64,000 nucleotides of DNA, taken from a virus. The notes under the pieces are model-generated. The model was not told the origin of the DNA. It did not search any database and was given only the letters and a program-made list of their open reading frames with translations. Position numbers and translations under genes: made by a program. Location of the stretch: the IMG/VR virus record IMGVR_UViG_3300012005_000004, positions 16,370 to 80,369 of that record. The stretch is one strand, 5' to 3'. Below, piece after piece: positions 5,543-42,498 of the stretch (positions within the stretch are counted from its first letter, which is position 1; the number at the start of each line of letters is the position of its first letter).

Positions 5543-5563
5543 TCACATAATTTAGGAAAAACT

Positions 5564-5833
5564 ATGACTTCAGAAGATATCTATCGAGCAGCTCTTATCG
5601 AGCTCGCAGATGAAGGAAATGAGAAAGCGAAATTTGCTCTCGGTATGGGATCTAGAGTTAGCGAAAACTCTAGAGAGATTCGTCCAAATGTTTCTACTGC
5701 TCTACAAAAAGCATCTGGTGAATTGACCAGAGCGCTAAGGTTGAATGGAGATGAGTGGACTAAAGAAACCGACAGAGCTGTTTCTGCTGCCCACGCCTAC
5801 TTAATGGAAGCGATGTCTCAATTAGCTAGATAG
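5564..5833 (+). CDS. hypothetical protein
   Basis: SD AGGA upstream. Confidence 0.6.
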   Translation: MTSEDIYRAALIELADEGNEKAKFALGMGSRVSENSREIRPNVSTALQKASGELTRALRLNGDEWTKETDRAVSAAHAYLMEAMSQLAR

Positions 5834-5839
5834 AGAAAC

Positions 5840-6793
5840 ATGAACGAACTCGCGGTCATCACGACTTACTACAACCCAGTTCGCTATCAAACGCGTCGCA
5901 AGAACTATGACGTTTTTATGGCGGGTATGAAGAAAGCTGGAGTGACTTGCATCACAGTCGAATGTGCGTTCGGAGATGAACCGTTTGAGCTAGAAGAATC
6001 TCCAGCTGTTATCCAGCTTCGATCTAAAACCTTGGTTTGGCAAAAAGAGAGGTTGATTAACATCGCCGCGTCCTACGTTCCAGATCATTTTAAGTATATC
6101 GCTTGGATCGATTGTGACGTCGTATTCATGAATAACAGCTGGGTAAAAGATACAATAAAGGTTCTCAAGAAGCACCAGGTGGCCCAGCTCTTCAAAACTT
6201 GTATGAGGTTGGATAAGCATGGCGACCGCACAAATGACATCTCTGAGTCCTTCGCCTCGGTGATGAGCGATCATCCAGAATATCTCAACTATGAACGGTA
6301 TGACAAGCATGGTCACACCGGTTACGCTTGGGCGATGCGCCGGGAGATCTTTGATAAGGTTGGATTATATGAAGCTGCGATCTCAGGCAGCGCAGATCAC
6401 TTCATGGCTCATGCCATCTATGATGATTACAACTTTTGCATTCAAAATGCTCTCAAGCATGATGAATTTCAGATCTCACATTTAAAGGAGTGGGGAAAGA
6501 GATTCTATGAGATAGTTAAAGGATCGCTAGGATGTGTACAAGGAGAGATCGAGCACCTTTGGCATGGAGATGCGGTTGATCGGCGGTACTTCCTCCGTAT
6601 GCATGAGATTACAGAGCTTGGATTTAATCCGTGGACAGACATAGTTTCACTTCCAGGAAAGCCTCTTGATTGGAGTCCTGGAATGAATAAACTGGGGCTA
6701 GTAAAGTACTTCGATAATTACTTTAGGGGCCGTCGAGAAGATGGAGCTAAAGAACCAGTGAGTCACCATTGTGGAGAAACTTGTGTCGTATAA
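5840..6793 (+). CDS. GT-A fold glycosyltransferase-like protein
   Basis: AWIDCDV DxD motif, WQKERLIN, GYAWA, HLWHG. Confidence 0.7.
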   Translation: MNELAVITTYYNPVRYQTRRKNYDVFMAGMKKAGVTCITVECAFGDEPFELEESPAVIQLRSKTLVWQKERLINIAASYVPDHFKYIAWIDCDVVFMNNSWVKDTIKVLKKHQVAQLFKTCMRLDKHGDRTNDISESFASVMSDHPEYLNYERYDKHGHTGYAWAMRREIFDKVGLYEAAISGSADHFMAHAIYDDYNFCIQNALKHDEFQISHLKEWGKRFYEIVKGSLGCVQGEIEHLWHGDAVDRRYFLRMHEITELGFNPWTDIVSLPGKPLDWSPGMNKLGLVKYFDNYFRGRREDGAKEPVSHHCGETCVV

Positions 6794-13367: not shown

Positions 13368-14525
13368 ATGAAGATTGTAGTCGTTGGAGGGATCGGTGCT
13401 GGTAAGTCGACCGTTATAGAGAAGCTTCAAACAGAGATGCTAAAGATGAATACTAGCATCGAGCCTATAAAGCCATCGGTGACTTTTTGCAGCGTTGATA
13501 AATTCGTTAGTTGGCTTTATGAAAACAGCATAGAGGTTAAGGAGTTCTTGAAGTCCTTAGGAATAAAAGATAAAGCTCAGATGTCGGACGTTGTGTTTGA
13601 AAATCCGTTTATCAAGGAAAAGCTTGAGAGCATCTGCGCCCCTTTGATCTCAAAGGAAATTAACTATTGGGTCGATCGAGAAGATTGGAAAAAGAACCAC
13701 TTGATCGTCGAATTTCCATTGCTATTTCAATATCCGGAGTACCTCGATAAGTTTGATGTGATCGTTTCAGTTACCGCTCCAATTGACGTAAGGATCGGTC
13801 GTATTAAAAATCGCAATGGGTTCTCTACTGACAAGATACTTTCAATCATAAACTCTCAACCTTTACAGCAAGACGTAGATGAGAGGGCTGACGTTGTGAT
13901 TTACAACGGATCAGATAAGCTCGATAGTGATGACATTAATATCTTGTTGAATGACATCGGAGAAGCTTATTTTAAGAAACAAGCTAGTTTAGAACATACT
14001 GATAAAGATGAATCAGATCTAAAGATCGGTATCGTTTCTGGTTCATTTGATCCCATCACCAAGGGTCACATGTGGCTGATTGATCGTGCTCTGGACATGG
14101 TGGACAAGGTCTATATCGTGATCGGAACCAACCCAGGAAAGAATAGCCTCTTCACGCAAGATGAAAAGAAGAATATGATCTGCGATTCTCTAGATAGTTT
14201 ACCTAAACATAAGCTAGAAAGAGTTCACATTAAGGTCCTTCCAGAGTCTGAGCTATTGGTGTATTACGCAAAAGAGCTTGGTGCGGCCTTCATCTTCCGT
14301 GGTCTCAGGTCTGGCATTGACTTTGAGTATGAATCTCAAATCAACATGACACAGCGAAAGCTTAATCCAGACATCGAGATAGTTTACTTGATGCCTCCAC
14401 GTGACAAGATCGAGATCAGCTCATCCTTTGTAAAAGGGCTATACAAGCTTAACGGTACCGATGAGCTGATTCAATCTTACGTTCCATATCCAGTTTATGA
14501 AGCTCTCAAGAAAAAGTTAAAATGA
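13368..14525 (+). CDS. coaE-coaD: fused dephospho-CoA kinase (N) and phosphopantetheine adenylyltransferase (C)
   Basis: GGIGAGKST P-loop, VEFPLLF; then GSFDPITKGH, RGLRSGIDFEYE, ISSSFVK. Confidence 0.9.
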   Translation: MKIVVVGGIGAGKSTVIEKLQTEMLKMNTSIEPIKPSVTFCSVDKFVSWLYENSIEVKEFLKSLGIKDKAQMSDVVFENPFIKEKLESICAPLISKEINYWVDREDWKKNHLIVEFPLLFQYPEYLDKFDVIVSVTAPIDVRIGRIKNRNGFSTDKILSIINSQPLQQDVDERADVVIYNGSDKLDSDDINILLNDIGEAYFKKQASLEHTDKDESDLKIGIVSGSFDPITKGHMWLIDRALDMVDKVYIVIGTNPGKNSLFTQDEKKNMICDSLDSLPKHKLERVHIKVLPESELLVYYAKELGAAFIFRGLRSGIDFEYESQINMTQRKLNPDIEIVYLMPPRDKIEISSSFVKGLYKLNGTDELIQSYVPYPVYEALKKKLK

Positions 14526-25850: not shown

Positions 25851-27839
25851 ATGGGCAAACTTCTTGAACGTTTCATGACGGACCTAGGCGGACGATCAAC
25901 AGATGATCTAATCCCACTCGAAGATTATCTCGAGCTCTGTAAGACAACCCCAGCAGTTTACGCATCTCCAGCTCAGCGTATGCTTAAGGCTATCGGTGAT
26001 CCAATCACGATCGACACGCGCAACGACACCCGGCTGGCCAAGGTGTTCGGCAACAAGATCATCCGTCAGTATCCAGCATTCAAGGATTTCTACGGCATGG
26101 AAGACGCGATCGAAAACATCGTGTCGTACTTCAAACACTCCGCTCAGGGTCTTGAAGAATCTAAGCAGATCCTGTACTTGCTTGGACCGGTCGGCGGCGG
26201 TAAATCGTCTTTGGCTGAAAAGCTAAAAGCTTTGATGGAAGATGTTCCGGTCTACATTCTCTGCACCCATGAAAAGGAAAAGAAGAACGAACACAGCACC
26301 GTCGAGAAATTTACCACTGAAGTATCTCCGGTCTTTGAAAATCCGCTCGGGTTGTTCCACGGAAAAGAATCGTACGTTACGATGCTCGCCGAAGAATATG
26401 ACATCCCAAAAACCGCGATTCGTACCATCCCATCGCCGTGGGCTGTTAAGAAGCTCGAAAGCTACGGCTATGATTTCTCAAAGTTCTATGTCAAGAAGAT
26501 CTATCCAAGCCGTCTTCGTCAAGAATGTATCGCTCGGGTTGAACCAGGCGATGAAAACAACCAGGATGTTTCTTCAATGGTCGGCGAGCTTAACATCCGC
26601 ATGCTCGAAAAGTTTGACCAGGATCACCCCTACGCTTACACCTTCTCGGGTGGATTGAACAAGGGTAATAATGGCTTGGTCGAAATGGTTGAAATGTTCA
26701 AGACCCCGATCAAGATGTTGAATCCTCTGCTGACGGCCACGCAAGATCGTAACTACACCGGTACGAAGCCGATTGGTTCGATTCCGTTTGACGGCATCAT
26801 CATGGCTCACTCGAACGAATCTGAATGGTCGCAGTTTAAGAATAACAAGACAAACGAAGCGTTCCTCGATCGCGTCTACGTTGTTCACGTTCCATATTGC
26901 ACACGGGTCAATGAAGAAATTTCGATTTACAAAAAGCTATTAGCTCACTCTGAACTGTTCAAGGCGCCTTGTGCTCCTGGAACTCTCGAGTTCCTCGCGC
27001 AATTCTGCGTTATGTCTCGTCTTGAAGAGCCTGGCAACTCAACTCTGTACTCAAAGATGCGAGTCTACAACGGCGAAAACGTCAAGAACGATGATCCGAA
27101 GGCTAAGCCTATCCAAGAATACAAGGATGCGGCCGGAGTCAACGAAGGCATGAAGGGTTTGTCAACTCGTTTTGCCTTCAAGATCCTCTCGAAGACGTTC
27201 AACTTTGACACCGAAGAAGTTGCGGCAAATCCGATCCACCTGATGTATGTCCTCAAGACGTCCATCGCCCACGAGCAATTTGACAGCGAAAAGAATGATG
27301 CGCTGTTGGAAAATCTCGACGGTGTGCTGTCGGACAAGTACATGGAGTTCCTCGAGAAGGATATCCGCGCATCGTTCCTGGATTCATTCCAGGACCTCTG
27401 CCAAAATGTCTTCGAGAACTACTTTTACTACGCCGATGCGTGGGTTCAGGACCAGGAGTTCCGCGATGCAGATACAGGCGTCATGCTTGATCGGCCGGCC
27501 ATCAACGCCGAGCTGGAGAAGATCGAGAAGCCTGCCGGCATCTCTAACCCGAAGGACTTCCGTAATGACATCACGAACTTTGTGATCCGTTATAAGTCTG
27601 ATCATGGTGGTCAGCTGCCGAAGTGGGATTCTTTCGCTAAGATGCGGGACGTGATCGAGAAGAAAGTTTTGGCTTCGACGGATGAGATCCTTCCGGTCAT
27701 CTCATTTGCACCGAAGCGCTCGGAGCAAGACCAGAAGAAACATGAGCAGTTTGTTGGAAAGATGGCGGCGCGCGGTTACACCGAACGCCAAACTCGATTC
27801 CTTTGCGAATGGTTCATGCGTTCCAGGAAAGCGTCGTAA
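25851..27839 (+). CDS. prkA: PrkA/YeaG family AAA+ ATPase / serine kinase
   Basis: KQILYLLGPVGGGKSSLAE, EPGDENNQD, HSNESEW, GLSTRFAFK. Confidence 0.96.
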   Translation: MGKLLERFMTDLGGRSTDDLIPLEDYLELCKTTPAVYASPAQRMLKAIGDPITIDTRNDTRLAKVFGNKIIRQYPAFKDFYGMEDAIENIVSYFKHSAQGLEESKQILYLLGPVGGGKSSLAEKLKALMEDVPVYILCTHEKEKKNEHSTVEKFTTEVSPVFENPLGLFHGKESYVTMLAEEYDIPKTAIRTIPSPWAVKKLESYGYDFSKFYVKKIYPSRLRQECIARVEPGDENNQDVSSMVGELNIRMLEKFDQDHPYAYTFSGGLNKGNNGLVEMVEMFKTPIKMLNPLLTATQDRNYTGTKPIGSIPFDGIIMAHSNESEWSQFKNNKTNEAFLDRVYVVHVPYCTRVNEEISIYKKLLAHSELFKAPCAPGTLEFLAQFCVMSRLEEPGNSTLYSKMRVYNGENVKNDDPKAKPIQEYKDAAGVNEGMKGLSTRFAFKILSKTFNFDTEEVAANPIHLMYVLKTSIAHEQFDSEKNDALLENLDGVLSDKYMEFLEKDIRASFLDSFQDLCQNVFENYFYYADAWVQDQEFRDADTGVMLDRPAINAELEKIEKPAGISNPKDFRNDITNFVIRYKSDHGGQLPKWDSFAKMRDVIEKKVLASTDEILPVISFAPKRSEQDQKKHEQFVGKMAARGYTERQTRFLCEWFMRSRKAS

Positions 27840-28006
27840 TGAATAGCCGAGAGATGTTTGAGCAGTCATTCAAGCGTCCCTCGGACTATTTTAGGTTGAC
27901 AGCCGAGCATCAATGGGAAATTGATGCTCGGCTTGGAATCCTAGATTGGGACGGGAAGAACTTGACAGAAGAAGATCATCTTAGATTTAGAAAACATTAT
28001 GAATGA
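27839..28006 (+). CDS. small hypothetical protein
   Basis: TAATG coupling; QWEIDARLGILDW. Confidence 0.6.
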   Translation: MNSREMFEQSFKRPSDYFRLTAEHQWEIDARLGILDWDGKNLTEEDHLRFRKHYE

Positions 28007-28647
28007 GCAAATGGAGAGTATTTTACTCTCCATTATTTTTAGAGAACATGAAAAATATAAAGATCATATCAGGGGGTCAAACAGGGGCCGACCTAGCTGG
28101 GTTGTGGGTAGCAAAGTTATTTGGATTACAGACAGGAGGGATGGCTCCTAAGGGATGGAAGACGCTGATAGGTTCAATGCCTCAGCTTGAAACCCTATTT
28201 CAAATGGGAGAGTCCGCAAGCGGATATCATGGCAGAACATTAGAAAATTGCGAGATGTCTGACATAACGCTGATCTTTGCATCTAATATTAAGTCGCCAG
28301 GTACCAAGCTAACTCTTCACCATTGTGTCAAGAACAAGATTCACTATCAAATCTTTGCGTTCGGAGACGATGCGGTTACTGCATCAGATCAAGCACTAGG
28401 AAGATTAGTAACAGTTTTGCAAAATCAACTTGCGGTGAATGAAGATTCGATCATTAACATCGCGGGTAATTCAACCTCGACATCCTCACAGACCTTCAAG
28501 TTTACATTTCTCTTGTTGTGTAAAGCTTTTGAGCAAGTTCTCAGATTTAAACCAGAGCAGCTGAAGAATCATGGTATAGATAAGGTAGAGGCGATGGCAC
28601 GAGACCGCTATGATCAATCAACTTTTGATTTTCTTACAAAAGTGTGA
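28003..28647 (+). CDS. SLOG-superfamily protein (putative molybdenum carrier family)
   Basis: KIISGGQTGAD, GGMAPKGW, RT..N..SD.TL, INIAGN. Confidence 0.82.
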   Translation: MSKWRVFYSPLFLENMKNIKIISGGQTGADLAGLWVAKLFGLQTGGMAPKGWKTLIGSMPQLETLFQMGESASGYHGRTLENCEMSDITLIFASNIKSPGTKLTLHHCVKNKIHYQIFAFGDDAVTASDQALGRLVTVLQNQLAVNEDSIINIAGNSTSTSSQTFKFTFLLLCKAFEQVLRFKPEQLKNHGIDKVEAMARDRYDQSTFDFLTKV

Positions 28648-28728
28648 GCGGTGAGATCAAAATTTCTTTTAGTATCTTTTTGAGAAGATCTATATTAGAA
28701 TAGATCTAATCATGGAGAATTCAAGGAA

Positions 28729-29490
28729 ATGAAGGATAATAACTCAAAGCTTCTCGGATTCAATGTTGCACAAGCTGCCTCTCAGTTTCGCTTGATGCAG
28801 CATCACGAATTGGTTAGCTACATCTTTCGCTCGAATGGTGTTGAGGATTACCTTGATTATTTCAATGCCCACAATCCATCTAGCGATATCCCATATCACA
28901 ATAAGTACCACACTTATTGTATGGCATTGAATGTCTATGAGGCTTCTCTCTATTACAATCTTTCTATAGAAGCTCGACGAGCTCTTCTAGTTGCCGCATT
29001 ATTTCACGATTATGATCATTCTGGTGGACGCAAAACTGACGACATAAACGTCGCCATAGCCGCAAATAACCTGGTTGATGCTCATAAACAGCTTGTAGAA
29101 ATATACCGAACTCAACCGGTCTCCGACGTCGGAGACCACTTCGCTCACTTAACTCCAAAAGAGCTCATTGATGCGATTGAGACGTTGCTTATTACTAAAT
29201 ACCCCTATGATGGACCTCCAGTCACGATGCTTCAAAAGATCATTCGTGATGCGGACTTGATGCAAGTATACGAAGAAGATGCTGATCGTCTGCGACAGCA
29301 ATTTCTCGGTCTAAAGGCTGAGATGGAGCTTACGCGCGGACCCTTTACACCAGAACAATGGGGCGATGGATGTCGTGATTTTAACGATGCTACCGTCTGG
29401 CATACCCAGTGGGCCCAGGACAAGGCGGTCGCCTTGGACCAAAAGGCTTGCACGGAACATCTTAGAAATTTATTGATAGGAAACAAATGA
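28729..29490 (+). CDS. HD-domain phosphohydrolase
   Basis: PYHNKYH, AALFHDYDH, IIRDAD. Confidence 0.85.
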   Translation: MKDNNSKLLGFNVAQAASQFRLMQHHELVSYIFRSNGVEDYLDYFNAHNPSSDIPYHNKYHTYCMALNVYEASLYYNLSIEARRALLVAALFHDYDHSGGRKTDDINVAIAANNLVDAHKQLVEIYRTQPVSDVGDHFAHLTPKELIDAIETLLITKYPYDGPPVTMLQKIIRDADLMQVYEEDADRLRQQFLGLKAEMELTRGPFTPEQWGDGCRDFNDATVWHTQWAQDKAVALDQKACTEHLRNLLIGNK

Positions 29491-30872
29491 GCATCGTCAT
29501 CAATGATAAGCGTAAAGTAACAAGGGATCGCACGTCTGAAAATCGGGCTCGTTTCCTTCGACGCATCAAGGGAACCATCAAGGAACAGATGAATGATATC
29601 ATCGGTGGAAAATCTCTCAAGGAGATGGACAAGACCGGTGGTAACATAAAGGTTAATCGAAAAACGATAACCGAGCCTCAGATCTGGCACACCGACGGAG
29701 GTAACGTCGATCGCGTCTTGCCTGGAAATGATCAATATGTTCCAGGAGATACCATCCAGAAACCACGCCAAGGCGGAGGTCAAGGACGCGGCAAGAATGC
29801 AAGCGATGGTCCAAACTCTGAAGATGATTTTGTGATTGAGCTGTCTCCTAAGGAATTCATGGATTATTTCTTTGAAGACCTAGAGCTGCCAGACATGATG
29901 AAAACCCAGCTGACGAAGATCAAGGAATATAAGCGTGAAAATGCTGGATTCCAAACAGATGGATCTCCGAATCGGCTGTCGGTCATTCGATCTTACAAAC
30001 AATCTTTCGCGCGCCGAATGATGATGAATGGAGTCTTCAAAGATCGCATCGCTATTCTCAACGAGCTACTTTACGTATTGACAAACTCGGAGATGCTAGC
30101 GGTGAAAATGATATCACTTCCACTTACGATTGATATCAAAGAAGCTGTGATCGAGACCGATAAGCTGCCTGAACGTGGAACATTTGAGCATGATCTTTTA
30201 GTCGCTACTGTCCAAGCTGAGATAGATCATTTGCACTTCAAGTGCGAGAACATGGCGATGTTCGAAGAGATGGACATGCGCTATAGAACTGTTATTAAGC
30301 GTGAGATTCCGATCGCACACGCTACCATGATGATGATCATGGATAACTCAGGATCGATGGGTGAGAAGGAAAAGACGATCGCTAGGAAGTTCTTCTGGTT
30401 GCTATACTCCTTCCTGGTCCGCGCATACGAGAAAGTTGACATGGTATTCATCTCACACACCACCGAAGCATCTGAGATGACCGAAGAAGAATTCTTTAAC
30501 ACTCGCGAGAACGGTGGAACTATCGTATCTTCAGCTTTGGATCTCACTAACGAGATCATCCAGAAGCGTCTGTTAAATAAGACTAACATCTATGTTGCTC
30601 AAGTTTCTGATGGTGACAATGTAGATTCTGACAATGACACTTGCATTGACATTCTTACCGATCAAATCCTCCCAAACATTCGCTACATGGCTTATGTTCA
30701 GGTAGATGATTATCATGGAGATGAAAATGCAAATGTCTATGGGAAAGGTTTATGGAGAGCTTATAAGTCGATCTCAGATACTAACTCGCGGTTGCAGATA
30801 AAACGCGTGCAAGATGAAAATAACATCTACCCTGTCTTCAGGGATTTGTTCAAAAAGAAAGAAACATCATAA
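29487..30872 (+). CDS. yeaH: YeaH/YhbH (DUF444) vWA protein
   Basis: NRARFLRR, PGNDQY..GD, FEDLELP, MDNSGSM, GGTIVSSAL, SDGDN. Confidence 0.93.
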   Translation: MSIVINDKRKVTRDRTSENRARFLRRIKGTIKEQMNDIIGGKSLKEMDKTGGNIKVNRKTITEPQIWHTDGGNVDRVLPGNDQYVPGDTIQKPRQGGGQGRGKNASDGPNSEDDFVIELSPKEFMDYFFEDLELPDMMKTQLTKIKEYKRENAGFQTDGSPNRLSVIRSYKQSFARRMMMNGVFKDRIAILNELLYVLTNSEMLAVKMISLPLTIDIKEAVIETDKLPERGTFEHDLLVATVQAEIDHLHFKCENMAMFEEMDMRYRTVIKREIPIAHATMMMIMDNSGSMGEKEKTIARKFFWLLYSFLVRAYEKVDMVFISHTTEASEMTEEEFFNTRENGGTIVSSALDLTNEIIQKRLLNKTNIYVAQVSDGDNVDSDNDTCIDILTDQILPNIRYMAYVQVDDYHGDENANVYGKGLWRAYKSISDTNSRLQIKRVQDENNIYPVFRDLFKKKETS

Positions 30873-31081
30873 TGAAAGTCAAAGTAGAGATTAAGTACCC
30901 ACGGTTCGCGGTTCAGTTTGGAAGACAGATCGCCTTTGGACAGATCTACAAAGATGGTGCATTGTTCTTTGACGGATCAATCGCTCAAATTTTAGAGGTT
31001 GTTAAAGTGCAAGACTTTGAGATCGAGAACGCGCAGGAGATTCTTGACCTTATAGTTCGACTCCACGGGTTTGCTTGCTAA
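30872..31081 (+). CDS. hypothetical protein
   Basis: TAATG coupling. Confidence 0.55.
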   Translation: MKVKVEIKYPRFAVQFGRQIAFGQIYKDGALFFDGSIAQILEVVKVQDFEIENAQEILDLIVRLHGFAC

Positions 31082-31090
31082 AAGGCAGAG

Positions 31091-31606
31091 ATGAAACTCT
31101 CAACGATTTGGCATCTTCTCGCCTTAGCGACGGCTGCTGGTTTAGTAGCAATTTGCTATCCAGAACCTACTAAGAAACCAGAGCTTAAGCAAGTGGTTTC
31201 TACCACCTTAACTAAGGTCCCTGGAGTCTCTGAAGGTATAGAGCTGTACATAGACACCAAGACCATCGAAGATTTTGTTGATTCAAAGTCCTCAGTTCGA
31301 CACGCTGTAGTGGTGTACTATTTTACAACACCACTTGTCATTAGAGGTAAGGATGTTTATTACATGCAAAAAGATGCTTTTTATGCATGTGATGATAATC
31401 TCTTCTTAAACGGTGATATAATCTTCTATGACAAGGCCGCCAGCCAGCTTTTCAAAGGACCAACTGGTGTCGGTGTTGAAAAACCAGAGAAGGATACAAA
31501 CTCAGAGGTTGAGATGAAATTTATCTGTGGCTCCAATGTTACAAAGAAGTCAGCTCCAAAGAGCTCAATCGGCCCAATAAAGCCACTTAATCACATTTAC
31601 ATTTAA
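31091..31606 (+). CDS. exported or membrane-anchored hypothetical protein
   Basis: Signal-like N-terminus; paired Cys. Confidence 0.6.
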   Translation: MKLSTIWHLLALATAAGLVAICYPEPTKKPELKQVVSTTLTKVPGVSEGIELYIDTKTIEDFVDSKSSVRHAVVVYYFTTPLVIRGKDVYYMQKDAFYACDDNLFLNGDIIFYDKAASQLFKGPTGVGVEKPEKDTNSEVEMKFICGSNVTKKSAPKSSIGPIKPLNHIYI

Positions 31607-31617
31607 GGAGCATTAAC

Positions 31618-33162
31618 TTGTCCGAAGATAAACTATTATTCAAGGCCGGTGATGATTGGACGTTTGAGATGCTCGATAAGATCTGGACCGAGATCGAGAT
31701 CATCGCTAAGGAAGAGCTGCGAATTCCTTATTACAAACCACAGATTGAAGTTATCACAGCACGACAGATGCTTGATGCTTATACCTCTGTCGGTATGCCA
31801 ACATACTACAAACACTGGTCATACGGTAAGGAATTTGTCCAAAGCGAGAAGCAGTATCTCAATGGACAGATGGGTCTCGCTTACGAGATTGTCATTAACT
31901 CTGACCCATGCATCGCTTACCTGATGGAAGAAAACAATGCCCTGATGCAAACCTTGGTCATGGCTCACGCTTCAGTCGGCCACGCGGCGGTTTTCACGAA
32001 CAACTACCTATTCCGCCAGAACACAGACGCGTCGGCGATCGTAGATTATCTCAACTTTGCTAGGGATTACCTGAAAAAGTGCGAGGAAAAGTATGGCTTT
32101 GATGAGGTAGAAGGTGTACTAGATGCATGCCATGCGTTATCGAACTACGGTGTCGATAAGTACAAGCGTCCACCAAAGATTTCGGCTGACAAAGAAGCTA
32201 AGAAAGCGATGGAGCGCTTTGAGCGCGAATTTGCTGACTACGATCCGATCTGGGCTAAGATCGGAAAACGGAAGGCTGATGCTAAGGATGTAAATCCTGT
32301 CACTGATACTAAGCTTGCTGAATCACAGGAAAACATCCTCTATTTTATCGAGAAAAATGCTCCACACCTTCCAGGTTGGAAACGTGAGGTCATCCGCATC
32401 GTACGGAAGATCAGTCATTATTTCTCACCGCAGCGTGCCACCAAGGTTCTGAATGAAGGGTACGCATCATTCACCCACTTCTACATTATGAATCGACTTC
32501 ATGAGAAGGGTTTCATCGACGGTGGTTCGATGATTGAATTCTTCGCTAGCCACAGCGGAGTTCTAACTCAACATAAATTTTCACAGTTCAACCCGTACAA
32601 GCTTGGTTTTTCGATCTTCATGGACATCAAGAGGATGGGTGAGGATCCAACCGATGAAGATCGATTATACTTTCCTGACCTTGCTGGAAAAGACTGGGTC
32701 ACCGAGATTAACTATGCGATGAAGAACTTCAAGGATGAAACATTTATCCTTCAGTACCTATCTCCAAAGGTCGCTCGAGACATGCAGTTGTTCGTAATTA
32801 ACTCAGAGTCGACAGGAGCTACACAATACGGCGTAACCGAGATCAGTAACCTTGAGGGTTTTGAAACTTTGCGTAAGAAATTGGCCGCACAGTTCGCGAT
32901 GGAAAATATCATCCCCGACATCCAAATTTCAAACGTTGATTACAAGCGCTCACGAAAGCTTACTCTTGAGCACCTGGTTAAGAACGGGAAGCCAATCAAT
33001 ATTGATGATACTCGTCGCGTTGTCCAACACGTCGCCGATCTGTGGGAATACTCAGTCACGCTAGATACCTTCGAATATGACAAGGAAGATGATGCAACCA
33101 AGCTTCACATCACAGCCCTTGGAAAATACTCAATGAAATCATATGAAGAAACCCACAGTTAA
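31618..33162 (+). CDS. ycgB: SpoVR/YcgB family protein
   Basis: GMPTYYKHWSYGK, LAYEIVINSDPCIAYLMEEN, TKVLNEGYAS, NPYKLG. Confidence 0.95.
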   Translation: MSEDKLLFKAGDDWTFEMLDKIWTEIEIIAKEELRIPYYKPQIEVITARQMLDAYTSVGMPTYYKHWSYGKEFVQSEKQYLNGQMGLAYEIVINSDPCIAYLMEENNALMQTLVMAHASVGHAAVFTNNYLFRQNTDASAIVDYLNFARDYLKKCEEKYGFDEVEGVLDACHALSNYGVDKYKRPPKISADKEAKKAMERFEREFADYDPIWAKIGKRKADAKDVNPVTDTKLAESQENILYFIEKNAPHLPGWKREVIRIVRKISHYFSPQRATKVLNEGYASFTHFYIMNRLHEKGFIDGGSMIEFFASHSGVLTQHKFSQFNPYKLGFSIFMDIKRMGEDPTDEDRLYFPDLAGKDWVTEINYAMKNFKDETFILQYLSPKVARDMQLFVINSESTGATQYGVTEISNLEGFETLRKKLAAQFAMENIIPDIQISNVDYKRSRKLTLEHLVKNGKPINIDDTRRVVQHVADLWEYSVTLDTFEYDKEDDATKLHITALGKYSMKSYEETHS

Positions 33163-33766: not shown

Positions 33767-33982
33767 ATGGCATGTAAACGTTGCACGGACCTTGCTGTGC
33801 AAACCAACGGAGATGCTGGAGATTTTTGCTCTTGTGTGAAATCTATCTCCAGGCTGGTTGAAATACCGAAGTCTAAGATCTACCTTCAATTGGTCCAATC
33901 ATTCATCGAAAACGCCGTCACGCTAGATGAAAACGACATTAAATCGCTGAAACAGCTTTGTAAGGACGGACTCAGTGACTGA
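33767..33982 (+). CDS. small hypothetical protein
   Basis: GGAG SD; CKRC...CSC. Confidence 0.55.
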   Translation: MACKRCTDLAVQTNGDAGDFCSCVKSISRLVEIPKSKIYLQLVQSFIENAVTLDENDIKSLKQLCKDGLSD

Positions 33983-34790
33983 ACGTTTCTTAATGTGTAA
34001 GCCCAAGTGGTTTTCAGTAAACTACGTCATCAACCCGTGGATGGATGGTAACATTTCTAGCGTGGTCTCTGCTGATGCCATGTCTCAATGGACCACGCTG
34101 CAAAAAGCTATAGCTAAGCTGGCTGAAGTGGTAGGCATCAACCAAGCTAAGAGTTTGCCTGACATGGTCTTCACTGCCAACGCAGCTTTAGTTCGAGATG
34201 GCAAGGCTATATTATCTCGATTCAAACACCCAGAACGTCAAGGAGAAGAAAAGCTATTCAGTGACCTGCTTCTCAACCAGGGATTTCAAGTTCTATGGTT
34301 ACCTAATGGCGTTCCATTTGAGGGGGCCGGTGACGCGCTATTTTGCACTCGACACCCAAGCTTGTTGTGGATGGGGTATGGACACCGAACTGATGCGATG
34401 GCCTCATTTTACATCGGTGATTATTTAAAGTGCGCGGTCGTACCGCTTAAGCTGATAGACGATCGCTTCTATCACCTTGACACATGCTTCTGTCCTCTCA
34501 AAAATGGAGAGCTGCTCTATTATCCACCAGCCTTTGACGAAGAGTCACTCCAGAAGATCAGGGCAATGATCCCAATGGATCAGCGGATCATCGTGTCTGA
34601 AGAAGATGCGCTAAACTTCGCTTGTAATGCAGTTAACATAGATACAAATATTTTTCTCAACAAAGCGTCAGATGAACTAGTTGAGAACTTGACTAGTCGA
34701 GGTTATGTTGTCAAACAACTTCCGCTGACAGAGTTCATCAAGGCTGGTGGATCTGCTAAGTGCTTAACGCTTCGTCTCACAGAAAACTAA
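33975..34790 (+). CDS. pentein-fold amidinotransferase / arginine dihydrolase-like enzyme
   Basis: YVINPWM, PDMVFTAN, FEGAGD, FYHLDTC, GGSAKCLT. Confidence 0.9.
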   Translation: MTERFLMCKPKWFSVNYVINPWMDGNISSVVSADAMSQWTTLQKAIAKLAEVVGINQAKSLPDMVFTANAALVRDGKAILSRFKHPERQGEEKLFSDLLLNQGFQVLWLPNGVPFEGAGDALFCTRHPSLLWMGYGHRTDAMASFYIGDYLKCAVVPLKLIDDRFYHLDTCFCPLKNGELLYYPPAFDEESLQKIRAMIPMDQRIIVSEEDALNFACNAVNIDTNIFLNKASDELVENLTSRGYVVKQLPLTEFIKAGGSAKCLTLRLTEN

Positions 34791-34908
34791 AACTGCATTC
34801 TTTCTCTTTTTCACAGCTCTAATGAAAGAGCAGTGAAAACTTGTTCACAATCTAGGAGAACAATGATATAATTTCTCCATCGATAGAGAAACTTTGGAGA
34901 ATTCCGCA

Positions 34909-37527
34909 ATGAGGCTACATCAGAATGATCACGGTTTTGAATCTCAGCTGCCGACCGATGAATATGAAGCTGGCATTGAATTTTCACAAAAGATGGTCAC
35001 GATCTTGTCCGACCATATCTACAAGGACAAGATCCTCGCGGTGATCCGTGAGCTCAGCTGCAACGCCTATGACTCCATGGTTGAAGCTGGCAAGAAGGAT
35101 TGCCCATTTAAGATGCACCTTCCGACTCGCATGGATCCAACCTTCTATGTAGAAGATAATGGTGTTGGGCTGGACCCATTGGTCCTCCCACGCGTCTACT
35201 TGACGTACGGGCACTCAACCAAAACCGATAATGATGAAGCGATCGGAGCTCTCGGCCTCGGGTCTAAGTCTCCATTTGCTTACACAAAATCTTCCTTCAT
35301 CGTCCGTAATCGCTGGAACGGCGTAGAGTATTCCTACTTGGTTTACTACAACGCGCAAGGTAAGCCTGCGATGTCAAAGGTCGGAGAAGAAGTTACCGAT
35401 CGAGGCAACGGACTGCGCGCCGAGTTTGCGGTCAAGCCTCAAGACATCTCCGCATTCTTTGATCGTACCGATCGTTTTTTCAAGTATTGGAAGAACACTC
35501 TTCCAGATTTCGTTGGTCAGGACACTAAGCGAGTCTTACATTCTAAGATCGATAAGGTCATCGACGGTGGTAGCTGGTACTTAGAAAACCGCGGAGCTGA
35601 TAGCGATTTCAAGGGGGCAATCGCTATCATGGGAAACATCCAATATCCCATCGAAGCTGATTCGATCCCAAATTTACCCGAAGAGCTGAAAGTAGTCGCT
35701 CAAAACTCCTTCGTGATTGAATTTCCGCTTGGATCTCTAGCTTTCCAGCCCTCGCGCGAAGCCTTATCATTTGATGATTTTACAAACAAGAGCTTGATCG
35801 CTCGCCTCGAAGAGGTTCGCCTATCAATGGGAGATACATTCAAGGCACAGATCTTTAAGAAGGGTCAAACGCAGCTGCAATTCCGTAAGAATTTCACTTT
35901 CAAGCTCAATGAGTTTGCTCGGATTATCAGGAGGGAAACTATTTCTTCTGCTCGATATGACAACCAAATTTATTGGGCCGTAAAGTTTCTGCTTAACCGT
36001 ACCCACGTCGATTCGGTAACCTATGATAAGTATGAATACAGCATCGACGGATTGCTGAATAATGTTCACTACGTAGTACGAGATGGTCACCAACAGTTCG
36101 CGATTATCTCTGAAACCACACGAGGTAAGAATGCTAGGATCTGGCTATCTAATGCTACATCATTGACGTTCTCTGCAAAACAAGATGTTCCATATGATGA
36201 GATTTATCCTGGTCCAAATATTGCTAGCCGAAAGATCAAACAAAACGAAAAGGTAACATTTGATTGGATCCCATCGTTAGTTCCAAACCGCAAGAACGCA
36301 GCTGAGTATAGCAATGTCCAACGGGTAGTTATGTCCGGTAAGTTTGACGTGGTAACTAACAATCGACTGATGCTTGACTCTCCAGAAGCAACCTTTGTCA
36401 TCAATGATGAAGGTGGCCCTGGTGAGAGCAAGTATAAAGCTTATATCAAGTCCCATCATCGTGGTCCACAACAGTATTTCTTCGTTAAGCACATCACGAA
36501 GGACATCTCTATCGTTGAGCTTACTCAGAAAGTTGCTTCGTTCATCGAAGACAATGGGATGAAAGGCGCATCTATCGAGTTTACTAGCAACCTTGAAGAT
36601 TATCGTCCGGTGCTTGATAAGGTTAAGAAGAATCGCGGCACCATCAAGCTTTACGTGCGAGAGTTCAAATTTTACCCAACTATCAAGAAGCCATTTCAGC
36701 TTAGCGTTGGCCGTAAGACGGAGGTTGGCCGCGGGGATATGCCTCGGCATCAAGATGAACACACTCAAACCATCTTTGAGTGGGATGTTCTGAAGAATGC
36801 AAAGTTGCCATGGCTTTACTTGCGTAAAACTCGGTCTAAGGTTGAAGCTAATGAAGACACCAAGGCTAATCAACGTTCATTTATAACGCACAATAAAGAT
36901 GCGGTAATTCTTGCCTTGACCAAAGGTTTATTGGAAGATGTCGAGCATGAGGTGTTGCAAGATCCTCATCATAAGACGGTAGATAACCTTCCAGTTACAT
37001 TCAACAAATATACCGTTCTAGTTCTCACCGACGGTCACATCAAAGAGCTGCAGAAGAAGGGTATCAAGATGGTAGGACTTTATGACCATGTTAATGCTAA
37101 GGTCGCTGAGATGTTTAAAGCTCATGATTTTCGTAAGGACCTAGAGCATGACGCGATGATGGATAATCAAACGGTTATCAATGGCTTATATAACAGGATG
37201 GCGCCAGCTACTCGGCGGGGACTGTTAACTCGAGTTGAACCTGAAGTCCCTAGCGCTGAATCACTGATGTTGTCAATGCTCAAGAACTACGATGACTACT
37301 TAAACGCTCCTAAGAATAATACTGAGAGCTACGAGATGGTTGCCCTGTATCAATATTTCGTTGATATGTACAGTGCTGGAGTTAGCAACAGCAAGTCAGC
37401 ACGAACCATTGATGAAAAAGTTAAAGACAGGTATCCGATCTTAAAGTATATGTCTATCAACAATTTAGATAAAAATGGAGTAGATATCCTTCTAGATTAC
37501 GCATCTATGGTTGAAAATAACTGTTGA
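34909..37527 (+). CDS. rIIA: rIIA-like protein (N-terminal GHKL ATPase)
   Basis: IRELSCNAYD, VEDNGVG, STK, GALGLGSKSPFAY; SD GGAG favours ATG 34909. Confidence 0.9.
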   Translation: MRLHQNDHGFESQLPTDEYEAGIEFSQKMVTILSDHIYKDKILAVIRELSCNAYDSMVEAGKKDCPFKMHLPTRMDPTFYVEDNGVGLDPLVLPRVYLTYGHSTKTDNDEAIGALGLGSKSPFAYTKSSFIVRNRWNGVEYSYLVYYNAQGKPAMSKVGEEVTDRGNGLRAEFAVKPQDISAFFDRTDRFFKYWKNTLPDFVGQDTKRVLHSKIDKVIDGGSWYLENRGADSDFKGAIAIMGNIQYPIEADSIPNLPEELKVVAQNSFVIEFPLGSLAFQPSREALSFDDFTNKSLIARLEEVRLSMGDTFKAQIFKKGQTQLQFRKNFTFKLNEFARIIRRETISSARYDNQIYWAVKFLLNRTHVDSVTYDKYEYSIDGLLNNVHYVVRDGHQQFAIISETTRGKNARIWLSNATSLTFSAKQDVPYDEIYPGPNIASRKIKQNEKVTFDWIPSLVPNRKNAAEYSNVQRVVMSGKFDVVTNNRLMLDSPEATFVINDEGGPGESKYKAYIKSHHRGPQQYFFVKHITKDISIVELTQKVASFIEDNGMKGASIEFTSNLEDYRPVLDKVKKNRGTIKLYVREFKFYPTIKKPFQLSVGRKTEVGRGDMPRHQDEHTQTIFEWDVLKNAKLPWLYLRKTRSKVEANEDTKANQRSFITHNKDAVILALTKGLLEDVEHEVLQDPHHKTVDNLPVTFNKYTVLVLTDGHIKELQKKGIKMVGLYDHVNAKVAEMFKAHDFRKDLEHDAMMDNQTVINGLYNRMAPATRRGLLTRVEPEVPSAESLMLSMLKNYDDYLNAPKNNTESYEMVALYQYFVDMYSAGVSNSKSARTIDEKVKDRYPILKYMSINNLDKNGVDILLDYASMVENNC

Positions 37528-37587: not shown

Positions 37588-37956
37588 ATGATTGCTTATC
37601 AACCTAAAACCATATTGGTAGTAGATGATAATATAGATTTAATTGCTTCAGCTGTTAATTTACTTAAAAATCATGGTTACGAGACCATCACAGCAGAGAA
37701 CGCCGCTGAAGCATTGAATATCATAGAATCTGGTAAACACGTTGATCTCATCTTCACTGATGTGGTAATGCCAGGGAATGTCTGTAGCGTCGAGATGGCT
37801 GCTCGGGCCAGATACATCTATCCGCATATCAAGGTTATCTTTACGAGCGGGTATAGAGATACTTTAAAGATGCTGCTTGAAGATGAGGTGTTTCTGTTGA
37901 AACCCTATGAGTTTAACTCAATGCTCAAAACTATAGAAGATGTTCTCAACAGCTAA
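37588..37956 (+). CDS. stand-alone CheY-like response regulator receiver
   Basis: ILVVDD, FTDVVMP, TSGY, LKP; own promoter 37533-37561. Confidence 0.92.
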   Translation: MIAYQPKTILVVDDNIDLIASAVNLLKNHGYETITAENAAEALNIIESGKHVDLIFTDVVMPGNVCSVEMAARARYIYPHIKVIFTSGYRDTLKMLLEDEVFLLKPYEFNSMLKTIEDVLNS

Positions 37957-38039
37957 CTTCACTTTTTTGTTTACACTTCGTGGATGTTGAGATATAATGT
38001 CTATATTAAATTTTTCAACAACCTCGGAGGCGAACCGAA

Positions 38040-39425
38040 ATGAGTAACGAGATCTACTACACCAGCCATGATGGTGGTGCTACGCTCTTTATGGACGGAA
38101 AGCTGAAGTCAATCTCCAGCGATCACCCAAATTTCATGAAGATCATGAGCGCTCTCAAGGCAAAGTCATATGACTTGGCCATCAAGCTCATGGACATGGT
38201 AGGAACCATCAATGATATTGGATCAAATGTTTCCAAGAAGTTTGTTGGTCGTAGAGTTTTTGTCGAAGGTGAAACGGTTTACTTCACGGATGAAAATGGC
38301 AAACATCATGTCTTGCACGGTACTCTTGTTGATCGCATCATCGATGATATCGGTAAGCCATCTGGACAAAAATATGCAGATGCTCTCTTGGCTCTTCAAG
38401 ATAACATCATGCGCAACACTCGCAAGGATATTCGCGAAGAGCTGTATGAGTTCTTAATGTCTGGAAAGACGCCGATCACGATGGATGGTTGCTTCCTGGC
38501 TTACAAGAAGGTAAAGGCTGCAAACAAGCAAGGTCAATACCTTGACATCTACTCTGGAACTATGGATAACGCGCCTGGTAAGATTCCGCGTATGGATCCA
38601 AAAGATGTCGACGCAGATCGGTACCGAGAATGCTCTCGAGGACTGCATTTCTGTTCTCGTGGTTATTTGAGTCACTATGGAAATGGAGATGGAGATGATT
38701 CATCTGTAGTTATGGTGGTGAAGGTCAATCCAAAGGATGTGTTTGCAATTCCTACGGATTATTCATTCCAAAAAGGTCGGGCATCTGAATATTATGTGGT
38801 AGGTATGGTTAATAAGGGACACGATCTTTCCAAAAGTGACGTGTTCAAGGATTCTTTTATCGATGAAGATAGCAAGGAAGCTTCGGCACCGAATGTTACA
38901 TTCAAGGCGCCTCTCAAGGCTGGCTTGCAAACTGTTGGCGAAAGCTATGGTTTGATCAACGATGGAAAATGCTTGGTCATCGAACAGAACGGAAAATATG
39001 TTCCAGTTAGATCAGCTTCATTCACCGGTAAGGTAGATGCTCCTGGTGCCGATCAAGTGAAGCATCGGTTGGGTAAGGTTATCATGGAGATGTTTGAATT
39101 GGCTTCATTTGAAGTTACGAGTGACCTTACTCTTGAACAAGTTGGTGGCGATTCGCTAGATGCGGTAGAGCTAGTTATGGCGATCGAAGATGAGTTTGAG
39201 ATTGAGATCTCCGATGATGATGCTGAAAAATTCCACACGTCAATGGATATTCTTAACTATCTGCTCAAGGTGAATAAGATCTTTCCACCGAATAAGTATT
39301 CTTATGTTGATGTTCTTGGAACTCCAGTTACCGGAGAACCGAAACTCATGTCATTTGAAACGAAGTCGGTTCGTCAGTCAGTAAAAGAAGCAGTACAAAA
39401 AGCTCAAGGATCTGTTAAGAGTTAA
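38040..39425 (+). CDS. rIIB: rIIB-like protein with inserted acyl carrier protein domain
   Basis: PITMDGCFLAYKKV, ECSRGLH, VKVNPKDVFAIP (rIIB); GGDSLDAVELVMAIEDEFEIEISDDDAEK (ACP). Confidence 0.9.
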   Translation: MSNEIYYTSHDGGATLFMDGKLKSISSDHPNFMKIMSALKAKSYDLAIKLMDMVGTINDIGSNVSKKFVGRRVFVEGETVYFTDENGKHHVLHGTLVDRIIDDIGKPSGQKYADALLALQDNIMRNTRKDIREELYEFLMSGKTPITMDGCFLAYKKVKAANKQGQYLDIYSGTMDNAPGKIPRMDPKDVDADRYRECSRGLHFCSRGYLSHYGNGDGDDSSVVMVVKVNPKDVFAIPTDYSFQKGRASEYYVVGMVNKGHDLSKSDVFKDSFIDEDSKEASAPNVTFKAPLKAGLQTVGESYGLINDGKCLVIEQNGKYVPVRSASFTGKVDAPGADQVKHRLGKVIMEMFELASFEVTSDLTLEQVGGDSLDAVELVMAIEDEFEIEISDDDAEKFHTSMDILNYLLKVNKIFPPNKYSYVDVLGTPVTGEPKLMSFETKSVRQSVKEAVQKAQGSVKS

Positions 39426-39455
39426 GTCGAAGAATGCCTCCCTTCGGTTTTACTC

Positions 39456-39490
39456 AGAGAGATCGAAGAAATTCGATCTCTCTTCTTTTG
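39456..39490 (+). terminator. intrinsic terminator
   Basis: AGAGAGATCGAA-GAAA-TTCGATCTCTCT followed by a T-rich tract. Confidence 0.75.
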
Positions 39491-39531
39491 AGCTAAGGTA
39501 AATAAATAGATAAACCAGAAAGGCGGACAAT

Positions 39532-40212
<681 letters not shown>

Positions 40213-40377
40213 GTAACTTGGTGGATATATGTGTATACATGTTCATAGATGTTTGTTATAATGATCTTAGTACTTAAGTAATTAAAAAGAGGTTTAAAAT
40301 GTATTCTTTACAATTTTCTTAGTGTAAATCCAACGTGTATTTAGCGTTAAAAACTTTCAAATGAAAGGTTACACCTC

Positions 40378-42498
40378 ATGCAACGGATTTATAAGGATAA
40401 TGCCGTGTTGCGAGGCATTATCGAAAACACCATGGATGCGATCATCGTCATTAACGATGATAATAAAGTAGTAGAATGGAACAAGTATGCCACTGATTTA
40501 TTTGGATATACCCAAGATGAAGCTATCGGTAGATCATTATCTTCTCTGATTATACCAGATACGTTCATTCCTCACCATGAGGCATGCGTTAATCGAGCTG
40601 TCCAAAATCAAAAAGATCATTGTTATCTTAGAACTGAGATGGATGCACGCAGAAAAGATGGTTGTAAGCTCAAAATTGAGCTTACAGTTTCTCAGATAAC
40701 TCTAAAAGATCAAAGCGGAATAAAGAATAGTTTGTTTAGCGTAGCAATACGTGATATCACAGTTCAAAAGAATAGTCAAGACCGTGTGATTCGCCAAGCT
40801 TCTCTTTTAGATCTTTCGCGTGATGGTATCTATGTTATTGATAAAGATCAGAGGTTGACTTGGTGGAATAAGGGGGCTGAGCTGCTCTACGGATATTCCA
40901 CTGATGAAGCTATCGGTCATATAGCTTATGAATTGTTACAAACAGATTACCCACTAAGTGGTAGGAATGCCTTTGAAGAGATCTTTCAAACACTTCTACA
41001 TTCTGGTTCTTGGGAAGGGGAGTTGACGCAACTCACAAAAGACGGTAATCGCGTTACAGTTCTCAGCCGTTGGGTACTTGATATCGAATATGATGAAGTG
41101 TTAATAACTAATACCAATATCACAGAGCTAAAACGAAATCAAGAAAAAATCGAATATCTCGCTACGCATGATGATCTCACTGGTTTGCCAAACCGTCGGT
41201 TGCTAGAAGATAGAATAAACCATGCGATAATCCAATGTGAACGAAATGGTGGTCACGTTGGTGTTCTATTCTTAGACCTTGATCGTTTCAAGATCATAAA
41301 TGATTCGCTTGGTCATGACATGGGAGATAAACTACTCAATGAGGTTAGTCAAAGATTAGTCAAATCAGTGAGACGTGAAGATACCGTAGCTCGTCTAGGT
41401 GGAGATGAATTTGTAGTAGTTCTTGAGAATGTATCAAATATTGAAGATATAGCTGAGATCTCTTCCAAGATACTGAATTCTATTCAACAACCTATTTCAT
41501 TGGGAGAAGGTGCTGGGAAGAGCATCTCAATCAACACTAGCATTGGTGGTTCCGTCTACCCAAAAGATGGCCTAGACGTTATCACATTGATGAGGAACGC
41601 TGATTTAGCTATGTATAAGTCTAAAGAATATGAAATGGGGGCATTTCGTTTCTACAGCCCAGAGATGAATGAGTTAGTTCTTCAACGACTGACAAATGAA
41701 AATAATTTAAGAAAAGCATTGAATAATGAAGAATTCATTCTCCATTTTCAACCGAAGATCTGTAGCGCAGAAGGGCGTACCACCGGTGTTGAAGCATTGA
41801 TTCGATGGAACCACCCAGAAAAGGGTTTAATCATGCCATCTGAATTTATTGGATTAGCTGAAGAGATCGGGTTAATCAATAAAATTGGTGAGTGGGCTCT
41901 ATACGCAGCGTGCGAGCAAAATAAAGCATGGCAAAATATGGGATTGCCTCTCATACAGATGTCAGTAAACTTGTCAGTGCACCAGCTCACGCCAAATTTA
42001 GTTAACATCGTATCAAAAGCGTTGAAAATGTCTGGCTTAGATCCAAAGTGGTTAGACCTAGAAGTTACCGAATCTGCTGCGATGAAAGATGTAGACATGA
42101 CGATTGAAACCTTAGGTAAACTTCGAAAGCTTGGTGTGTCAATCTCTATCGATGATTTTGGAACTGGATATTCATCTCTAGAATATCTTAAAAAGATGCC
42201 GTTAGATAACTTGAAGATTGATCAATCATTTGTTAGTGGCATTCCAACAGATTCTAATGACCTTTGTATCGTGGCTGCAATCATTGGTCTGGCTCATAAC
42301 ATGAAGCTACGAGTGATCGCTGAAGGAGTGACATCTAAAGAACAAGTTGCGTTCTTAGACACACACAAATGTGATGAGATGCAGGGTTACCTATTCAGCC
42401 GTCCAGTGACAGCTGAGGACGTAGAGCAAAGGTTGATCGGTCAAGTTTGGAGCTACCCATACCAAGGAAATCATGAACTACGAACGTGCGATGATTGA
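40378..42498 (+). CDS. PAS-PAS-GGDEF-EAL diguanylate cyclase/phosphodiesterase
   Basis: HDDLTGLPNR, RRED I-site, GGDEF, EALIRW, DDFGTGYSS, IAEGV. Confidence 0.96.
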   Translation: MQRIYKDNAVLRGIIENTMDAIIVINDDNKVVEWNKYATDLFGYTQDEAIGRSLSSLIIPDTFIPHHEACVNRAVQNQKDHCYLRTEMDARRKDGCKLKIELTVSQITLKDQSGIKNSLFSVAIRDITVQKNSQDRVIRQASLLDLSRDGIYVIDKDQRLTWWNKGAELLYGYSTDEAIGHIAYELLQTDYPLSGRNAFEEIFQTLLHSGSWEGELTQLTKDGNRVTVLSRWVLDIEYDEVLITNTNITELKRNQEKIEYLATHDDLTGLPNRRLLEDRINHAIIQCERNGGHVGVLFLDLDRFKIINDSLGHDMGDKLLNEVSQRLVKSVRREDTVARLGGDEFVVVLENVSNIEDIAEISSKILNSIQQPISLGEGAGKSISINTSIGGSVYPKDGLDVITLMRNADLAMYKSKEYEMGAFRFYSPEMNELVLQRLTNENNLRKALNNEEFILHFQPKICSAEGRTTGVEALIRWNHPEKGLIMPSEFIGLAEEIGLINKIGEWALYAACEQNKAWQNMGLPLIQMSVNLSVHQLTPNLVNIVSKALKMSGLDPKWLDLEVTESAAMKDVDMTIETLGKLRKLGVSISIDDFGTGYSSLEYLKKMPLDNLKIDQSFVSGIPTDSNDLCIVAAIIGLAHNMKLRVIAEGVTSKEQVAFLDTHKCDEMQGYLFSRPVTAEDVEQRLIGQVWSYPYQGNHELRTCDD

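Follow-up and report, generated by a model that had tools for sequence, protein, structure and literature searches.

The open reading frame at positions 38,040–39,425 (+ strand, stop codon included) of the analyzed window, i.e., the whole 64,000-nucleotide stretch of viral DNA examined here, encodes a true rIIB protein of 461 aa (referred to as P0001) that is syntenic with rIIA and an HNH gene, and within which a complete acyl carrier protein (ACP) domain is inserted. The same combination of domains recurs elsewhere among rIIB proteins. Our preferred reading, to which we assign a probability of roughly 40%, is that the domain is a flexibly tethered adaptor, which the host AcpS probably converts to the holo form and which docks rIIB onto an ACP-recognising partner.

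The window corresponds to the 3′-terminal 64 kb of an IMG/VR virus record of 80,369 bases, which CheckV estimates to be ~22% complete, and which is therefore taken to be a fragment of a giant phage. Two soil-metagenome runs (referred to as X1 and X2) were found to contain the window, and no RNA run was listed among the public runs containing it.

An acyl carrier domain inserted into rIIB

The identity of P0001 as an rIIB protein follows from its family profile, its rIIB-like predicted fold, and the presence of rIIA nearby on the same strand. Specifically, aa 12–261 match the rIIB family PHROG 609 (E 1.8e-51), four further rIIB PHROGs match as well, and the precomputed Pfam annotation of the protein in a public protein collection combines PF26926 (Phage_T4_rIIB) with PF00550. 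In a Foldseek search of BFVD with the P0001 model, the matches (E 1e-16 to 8e-23) were rIIB proteins from many different phages, and the predicted structure resembles the rIIB models of Aeromonas, Acinetobacter, Pectobacterium, and RB43 phages. P0001 shares with T4 RIIB a homologous core and a position beside rIIA in the same orientation, but differs from it in its internal ACP and in a β subdomain and tail that are specific to its subfamily; in addition, rIIA and rIIB are separated by a receiver-domain gene in the window.

The layout of the protein was derived from alignments with relatives and from an AlphaFold model (overall pLDDT 90.4, pTM 0.82). The rIIB body (aa 1–325; 38,040–39,014, +), comprising an N-terminal region, the conserved core, and a small C-terminal β subdomain, aligns with ACP-less relatives up to ~aa 325 and is modeled with a pLDDT mostly above 90. 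It is followed by a variable and predicted flexible linker (aa 326–337; 39,015–39,050, +; pLDDT <50 at aa 330–333), which shows 0% identity to the corresponding linker of P0002, the sole homologue of the same layout, known only as a protein. The AcpP-like domain itself spans aa 338–412 (39,051–39,275, +; pLDDT 72–88), after which a second linker (aa 413–420; 39,276–39,299, +; pLDDT <50 at aa 415–418) leads into the conserved rIIB C-terminal tail (aa 421–461; 39,300–39,422, +). This tail is common to the ACP-less relatives, is 76% identical between P0001 and P0002, and is modeled with a pLDDT of 92–98.

Most of the 13 aligned relatives are 355–370 aa long and end in the same tail (VD.IGTPV...MS.ETKSVR.AVK.AV). 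In P0001 and P0002, the ACP is situated between the small β subdomain (SYGL..DGK..V..G..VPV) and this tail, at a point where the relatives have a short variable loop only. The earlier note had remarked that the frame stays open for ~50 aa beyond the domain, and the 49 residues concerned indeed turned out to be a genuine rIIB tail. Since these residues correspond to the conserved tail of ACP-less relatives, the domain is rightly described as inserted.

The presence of an ACP domain within rIIB, as the earlier note had claimed, was borne out by Pfam, NCBIfam, PDB, and fold matches. In P0001, aa 348–407 match the Pfam PP-binding family (PF00550; E 4e-9), scoring 37 bits where 20.8 are required, and aa 339–410 match the NCBIfam acyl_carrier models from end to end (positions 3–73 of 77 in TIGR00517). 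The equivalog cut-offs for AcpP were missed (55.9 vs. 70.45 for TIGR00517, and 59.5 vs. 106 for NF002149), and by these profile scores the domain is classified as AcpP-like rather than as an AcpP equivalog. A PDB sequence search with the domain retrieved ACPs only, with Aquifex 2ehs at E 4.5e-12 and E. coli AcpP (1l0h/6n3p) at E ~1e-10. When superposed on solved ACPs, the domain model yielded TM scores of 0.82–0.88 and an rmsd of 1.4–1.6 Å at ~42% identity, with VIA Z scores of 10–12.5 against ACPs, and the predicted structure is accordingly that of a four-helix ACP fold. The domain is strongly acidic (pI 4.05, net charge –14), and its helix II (DSLDAVELVMAIEDEF) shares all but 3 of 16 residues with that of E. 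coli AcpP. Moreover, the TCG codon at 39,153–39,155 (+), where the attachment serine had been placed by the earlier note, reads directly as Ser372 of the motif GGDSLD, which aligns with the DSLD motif of solved ACPs and makes this residue the canonical phosphopantetheine attachment serine.

Compared with AcpP (TIGR00517; PF00550), the domain thus has the full-length four-helix fold, the DSLD serine motif, a pI of ~4, and ~42% identity in common. It differs from AcpP in being embedded in a 461-aa protein instead of being a free protein of 8–9 kDa, in falling below all AcpP equivalog cut-offs, in having a one-residue deletion in loop I, and in not standing free among fab genes, since the record lacks genes for ketosynthases, acyltransferases, and AMP-binding proteins. 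Stand-alone phage ACPs belong to the same family (PHROG 5934, E 3.6e-13; PHROG 4154, E 5.9e-7) and are likewise phage-borne, with no established role, but they are separate genes, whereas the domain in the window is part of rIIB.

An assembly chimera or frameshift artefact joining an ACP gene to rIIB, which the earlier note had offered as grounds for discarding its own reading, is barely credible: although the window is a metagenomic contig and the Logan contig of run X1 breaks inside the gene at 39,032–39,048, that break is due to a 19-base Nextera adapter sequence in which the contig ends, a Logan contig from run X2, 14,737 bases in length, spans 38,607–40,300 and thereby both junctions with zero differences, the tail past the domain is in frame and conserved, and the GC content stays flat across the carrier domain. 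Because the record may itself derive from runs X1 and X2, independent evidence has to come from P0002, which stems from another assembly, is 62% identical to P0001, and has the same architecture with the same two junctions.

The fold of the rIIB core was approached with a model of the ACP-less relative P0004 (pLDDT 95). A Foldseek search of the PDB with this core found nothing, and the highest Z obtained with VIA-align was only 5.3, i.e., no clear match to a solved fold. At E values up to 10, the only Pfam family found on the rIIB core was DUF7666 (in 23 of 97 members), and no catalytic family appeared. Proteins with an ADP-ribosyltransferase fold made up ~16 of the top 50 weak VIA rows (P0004 ~110–284, corresponding to ~aa 115–290 of the window protein), including Arr, Scabin, PARP13, pertussis, cholera-like and diphtheria toxins, and CC0527. 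Since neither Foldseek nor Pfam gives support, a predicted core fold resembling that of ADP-ribosyltransferases is a weak lead only.

Gene neighborhood and CoA-related genes

The rIIB gene is preceded by rIIA (34,894–37,527, +; 877 aa; PHROG 612 RIIA, E 6e-95) and followed by an HNH endonuclease gene (39,532–40,182, +; Pfam HNH, E 2.5e-13). This rIIA–rIIB–HNH order is common to the nearest viral relatives (loci L002–L005), in all of which HNH copies of 59–60% identity are also located 3′ of rIIB. Between rIIA and rIIB, the window carries a stand-alone response-regulator receiver gene (37,588–37,956, +; Pfam Response_reg, E 2.9e-13), for which tblastn against these four relatives gave no match; in L004 and L005, rIIA ends ~125 bases before rIIB.

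A consensus scan pointed to a promoter-like site (TTTACA-17-TATAAT, 11/12) at 37,970–37,998 (+), located 41 bases 5′ of the rIIB start codon, and a terminator-like hairpin of 12 pairs followed by a T-run was found at 39,456–39,493 (+), starting 31 bases past the rIIB stop codon; both are pattern matches only. Further along, a PAS-PAS-GGDEF-EAL gene is located at 40,378–42,498, 1 kb downstream. Upstream of rIIA, the phage carries a set of genes on the + strand encoding PrkA (25,851–27,839), a cpYpsA SLOG protein (28,003–28,647), DUF444/YeaH (29,487–30,872), and SpoVR (31,618–33,162). This set (25,851–33,162 as a whole) corresponds to the yeaG-yeaH-ycgB stress module of bacteria and is followed by an arginine dihydrolase/DDAH-like gene at 33,975–34,790.

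Enzymes that act on ACPs were sought throughout the 80-kb record (~22% complete), and no gene for a PPTase, an AMP-binding or acyl-ACP synthetase-type protein, a PlsC-type acyltransferase, or a ketosynthase was found. Likewise, the genomes of four complete giant-phage relatives contain no PP-binding domain anywhere, and when 80 related viral loci were searched with two home-made HMMs up to 6 kb from rIIB, no free ACP gene was detected. The absence of ACP enzymes from the record, together with the carrier-less complete relatives, makes it more likely that the partner or the modifying enzyme is the host's. As the record covers 22% of the genome, a phage PPTase or ACP-using enzyme may nevertheless be encoded elsewhere in it.

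The window also encodes a CoaE-CoaD fusion (13,368–14,525, +), i.e., a dephospho-CoA kinase joined to a phosphopantetheine adenylyltransferase, of which both halves score above their NCBIfam equivalog cut-offs. On the basis of this gene together with the ACP domain, the earlier note had suggested a phage CoA/ACP circuit. A CoaE-CoaD fusion of 41% identity is nevertheless kept in the complete giant-phage relatives G001 and G002 (loci L091 and L092), whose rIIB lacks an ACP and whose genomes lack any PP-binding domain. The CoaE-CoaD fusion and the ACP insert are thus not co-inherited, the former being a trait of the phage group rather than a companion of the insert, and the idea of a circuit was rejected.

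Recurrence and modular turnover of rIIB–ACP fusions

Searches of protein collections with P0001, its C-terminal part, and P0157 yielded 13 proteins in which an rIIB core and an ACP domain occur together, so that the domain-architecture check proposed in the earlier note revealed a recurrent combination, present in ~3 of 120 and ~9 of 120 rIIB clusters among those listed in two of the searches. No description of such a fusion was found in the literature, in agreement with what the earlier note had stated. The fusions fall into four layouts, with the ACP either inserted before the tail (layout 1: P0001 and P0002), appended after the tail (layout 2: P0042), situated between the N-terminal region and the core (layout 3: P0157, P0218, P0272–P0275, and P0313), or situated after the core with or without further sequence (layout 4: P0315, P0339, and P0347). 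The serine motif DSLD is present in 12 of the 13, and P0347 has Glu at the serine position (GGDELD).

In a quickly built maximum-likelihood tree of 122 rIIB cores, at least three changes are required to account for the first five fusions. The clade of P0001 and P0002 (support 99) is sister to the ACP-less P0003–P0005, and a viral contig (L084) encodes a protein that is 76% identical to P0157 and has no ACP module. The existence of such close ACP-less sisters indicates that the module has been gained or lost several times. The strongly supported branches of the tree, taken alone, are compatible with a single origin of the fusions, but the different insertion points argue against it.

The fused ACPs resemble free ACPs (best local identity 51–67%) more closely than they do the fused ACPs of other layouts (38–51%, over at least 63 aligned residues). 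Within layout 3, the ACPs are 49–68% identical; in its two most distant members, the ACP is 54% and 49% identical vs. 45% for the core and far exceeds the adjacent linker in identity. In the closer members, identity in the ACP equals or exceeds that in this linker. Between P0001 and P0002, the ACP is 35% identical vs. 72–76% for core and tail, P0002 has an extra loop insertion in its ACP, and helix II is the best conserved part of the domain (61% identity).

None of the three fused forms found a match covering at least 80% of its length among 50,697 phage records, and tblastn of the C-terminal 200 aa of P0001 against phage records gave no match either, although the low-complexity filter may mask the acidic helix. 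Furthermore, no relative of P0042 was found in IMG/VR, and an ESM Atlas search by features gave no usable match. The nearest cellular ACPs are mostly 39–51% identical over the domain and scattered across many phyla. Given this distance and taxonomic scatter, the carrier domain is regarded as old rather than as a recent capture from a host, and neither its donor nor the host of the phage can be named.

Other accessory domains were also encountered on rIIB cores (P0318, P0320, P0333, P0349, P0368, P0373, P0385, and Atlas clusters), comprising fusions to HTH (HTH_23, HTH_28, HTH_38, and CENP-B_N), Myb-like, and zinc-ribbon domains, so that this family carries several kinds of small accessory module, the ACP among them. 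Conversely, AcpP-like domains occur on proteins other than rIIB (P0121, P0122, and P0149; loci L088 and L089 at 5563–6444). Among such proteins are a Sel1-repeat protein with a 20-residue helix II stretch identical to that of the window domain, a membrane protein with an ACP-like domain in which DELD replaces DSLD, and, in two 250-kb phages, a protein that matches the MazG-like pyrophosphatase family PHROG 1247.

Possible roles of the carrier domain

In previous work, RIIA and RIIB were shown to be required to overcome RexAB exclusion, and RIIB by itself was found to be toxic to E. coli and to trigger a CARD-gasdermin defence (PMC10312443; PMC13716836). The mechanism by which rII acts on RexAB and by which RIIB triggers the gasdermin system has been called unclear (PMC10312443), and rIIB was treated as a transcription factor in one comparative study (PMC7824862).

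The gene encodes an orthologue of the rIIB that related giant soil phages carry without an ACP, and a complete AcpP-type domain is inserted in its naturally variable loop between β subdomain and tail, tethered by two short, predicted flexible linkers. In the adaptor reading that we favor, the host AcpS would probably convert Ser372 to the holo form, and the almost unchanged recognition helix II would then dock rIIB, with rIIA along, onto an ACP-recognising protein. The most plausible partners would be membrane-associated ACP clients of the host, and docking onto them might localise or tune the rII complex, with the carriage of fatty acids as such probably being secondary.

The varied position of the module among the fusions and the low-confidence linkers are better accommodated by a tethered adaptor than by a carrier serving one fixed active site, and the Glu at the serine position in P0347 indicates that at least one lineage can do without carrier chemistry. 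Together with the lack of phage ACP enzymes, these features favor a docking or adaptor role over carrier chemistry, although the serine in 12 of the 13 fusions would also be in keeping with the prosthetic group, or acyl chemistry, being truly required. Of the roles put forward in the earlier note, anchoring or regulation of rIIB through phosphopantetheinylation and a decoy for ACP-binding host factors both retain some plausibility. Known systems in which an ACP is docked via helix II as an adaptor, i.e., MukB-AcpP of E. coli, NFS1-ISD11-ACP, and NDUFAB1 of complex I, can serve as a model only, and solved complexes of these very systems (9gm6, 5usr, and 6zr2) are among the fold matches of the window domain. 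The comparison is by analogy only, since in these systems the ACP is a separate subunit and its acyl-Ppant arm is usually inside the partner.

A carrier acting in cis is a rather unlikely alternative, in which the rIIB core would itself be an enzyme or ligand-binding domain acting on the Ppant-bound group or on the ACP. The fusions would then constitute Rosetta-stone evidence for a use of ACP or acyl-ACP by rIIB in general, with ACP-less rIIBs using host AcpP in trans, and independent fusions of the same two domains are indeed classic evidence of a direct functional link. The wide retention of the serine is in line with such a role, as are the invariant polar and Cys/His residues of the core (C198, H203, R247, S249, and E250, plus a DN.PG motif), and a core that resembles no solved fold clearly could have an activity that has escaped recognition. 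However, varied module placement on long flexible tethers indicates no single fixed geometry, the serine has given way to Glu in one lineage, and even the permissive Pfam search placed the core in no catalytic family. A complex prediction of the rIIB body and tail with the ACP domain scored 0.01, which gives no verdict either way.

Quite unlikely, in our view, is a decoy or mimic, i.e., a domain that imitates host AcpP in order to titrate or mislead an ACP-binding host factor (e.g., the regulators SpoT or MukB, or a defence sensor) rather than to localise rIIB. Such mimicry would suit the AcpP-like acidity of the domain, the near identity to AcpP of helix II, i.e., the surface used by ACP partners, and the existence of a variant with an acidic residue in place of the serine (P0347). 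AcpP is generally among the most abundant proteins of the cell, so that a decoy acting stoichiometrically while tethered to rIIB could compete only weakly. Moreover, mimicry offers no reason for repeated fusion to rIIB rather than a stand-alone form, and free phage ACPs do exist (PHROG 5934).

Less likely again is a tolerated passenger, i.e., an ACP that landed in a permissive loop and is drifting there with little or no function. All relatives have a variable loop where the domain is inserted, close relatives lack the domain, and the complete relatives are without any ACP. The faster evolution of the ACP in the window lineage (35% vs. 72–76% elsewhere in the protein), along with the extra loop insertion in P0002, could moreover reflect relaxed constraint. 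Against drift stand the open frame and a predicted fold that is intact when compared to solved ACPs, the serine and helix II kept in both P0001 and P0002, and the presence of the same domain type in at least three other rIIB layouts, with 49–68% identity within one clade; repeated ACPs are not expected of random passengers.

Beyond the fused forms, rIIB proteins in general might act via host ACP, with ACP-less rIIBs, including that of T4, binding holo- or acyl-AcpP in trans. We regard this broader partnership as doubtful, but if true, it would offer the first molecular handle on how rII protects from Rex-type abortive infection.

Finally, the window provides a clean natural experiment, in which an ACP-bearing gene can be set against ~60%-identical relatives lacking the module, 55%-identical ACP-less relatives with conserved synteny, and carrier-less complete relatives. 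The rII genes are among the most famous in genetics, and the repeated fusion to rIIB, at different positions, of a domain with a well-understood surface and chemistry makes it possible to test whether rII is linked to the ACP network of the host.
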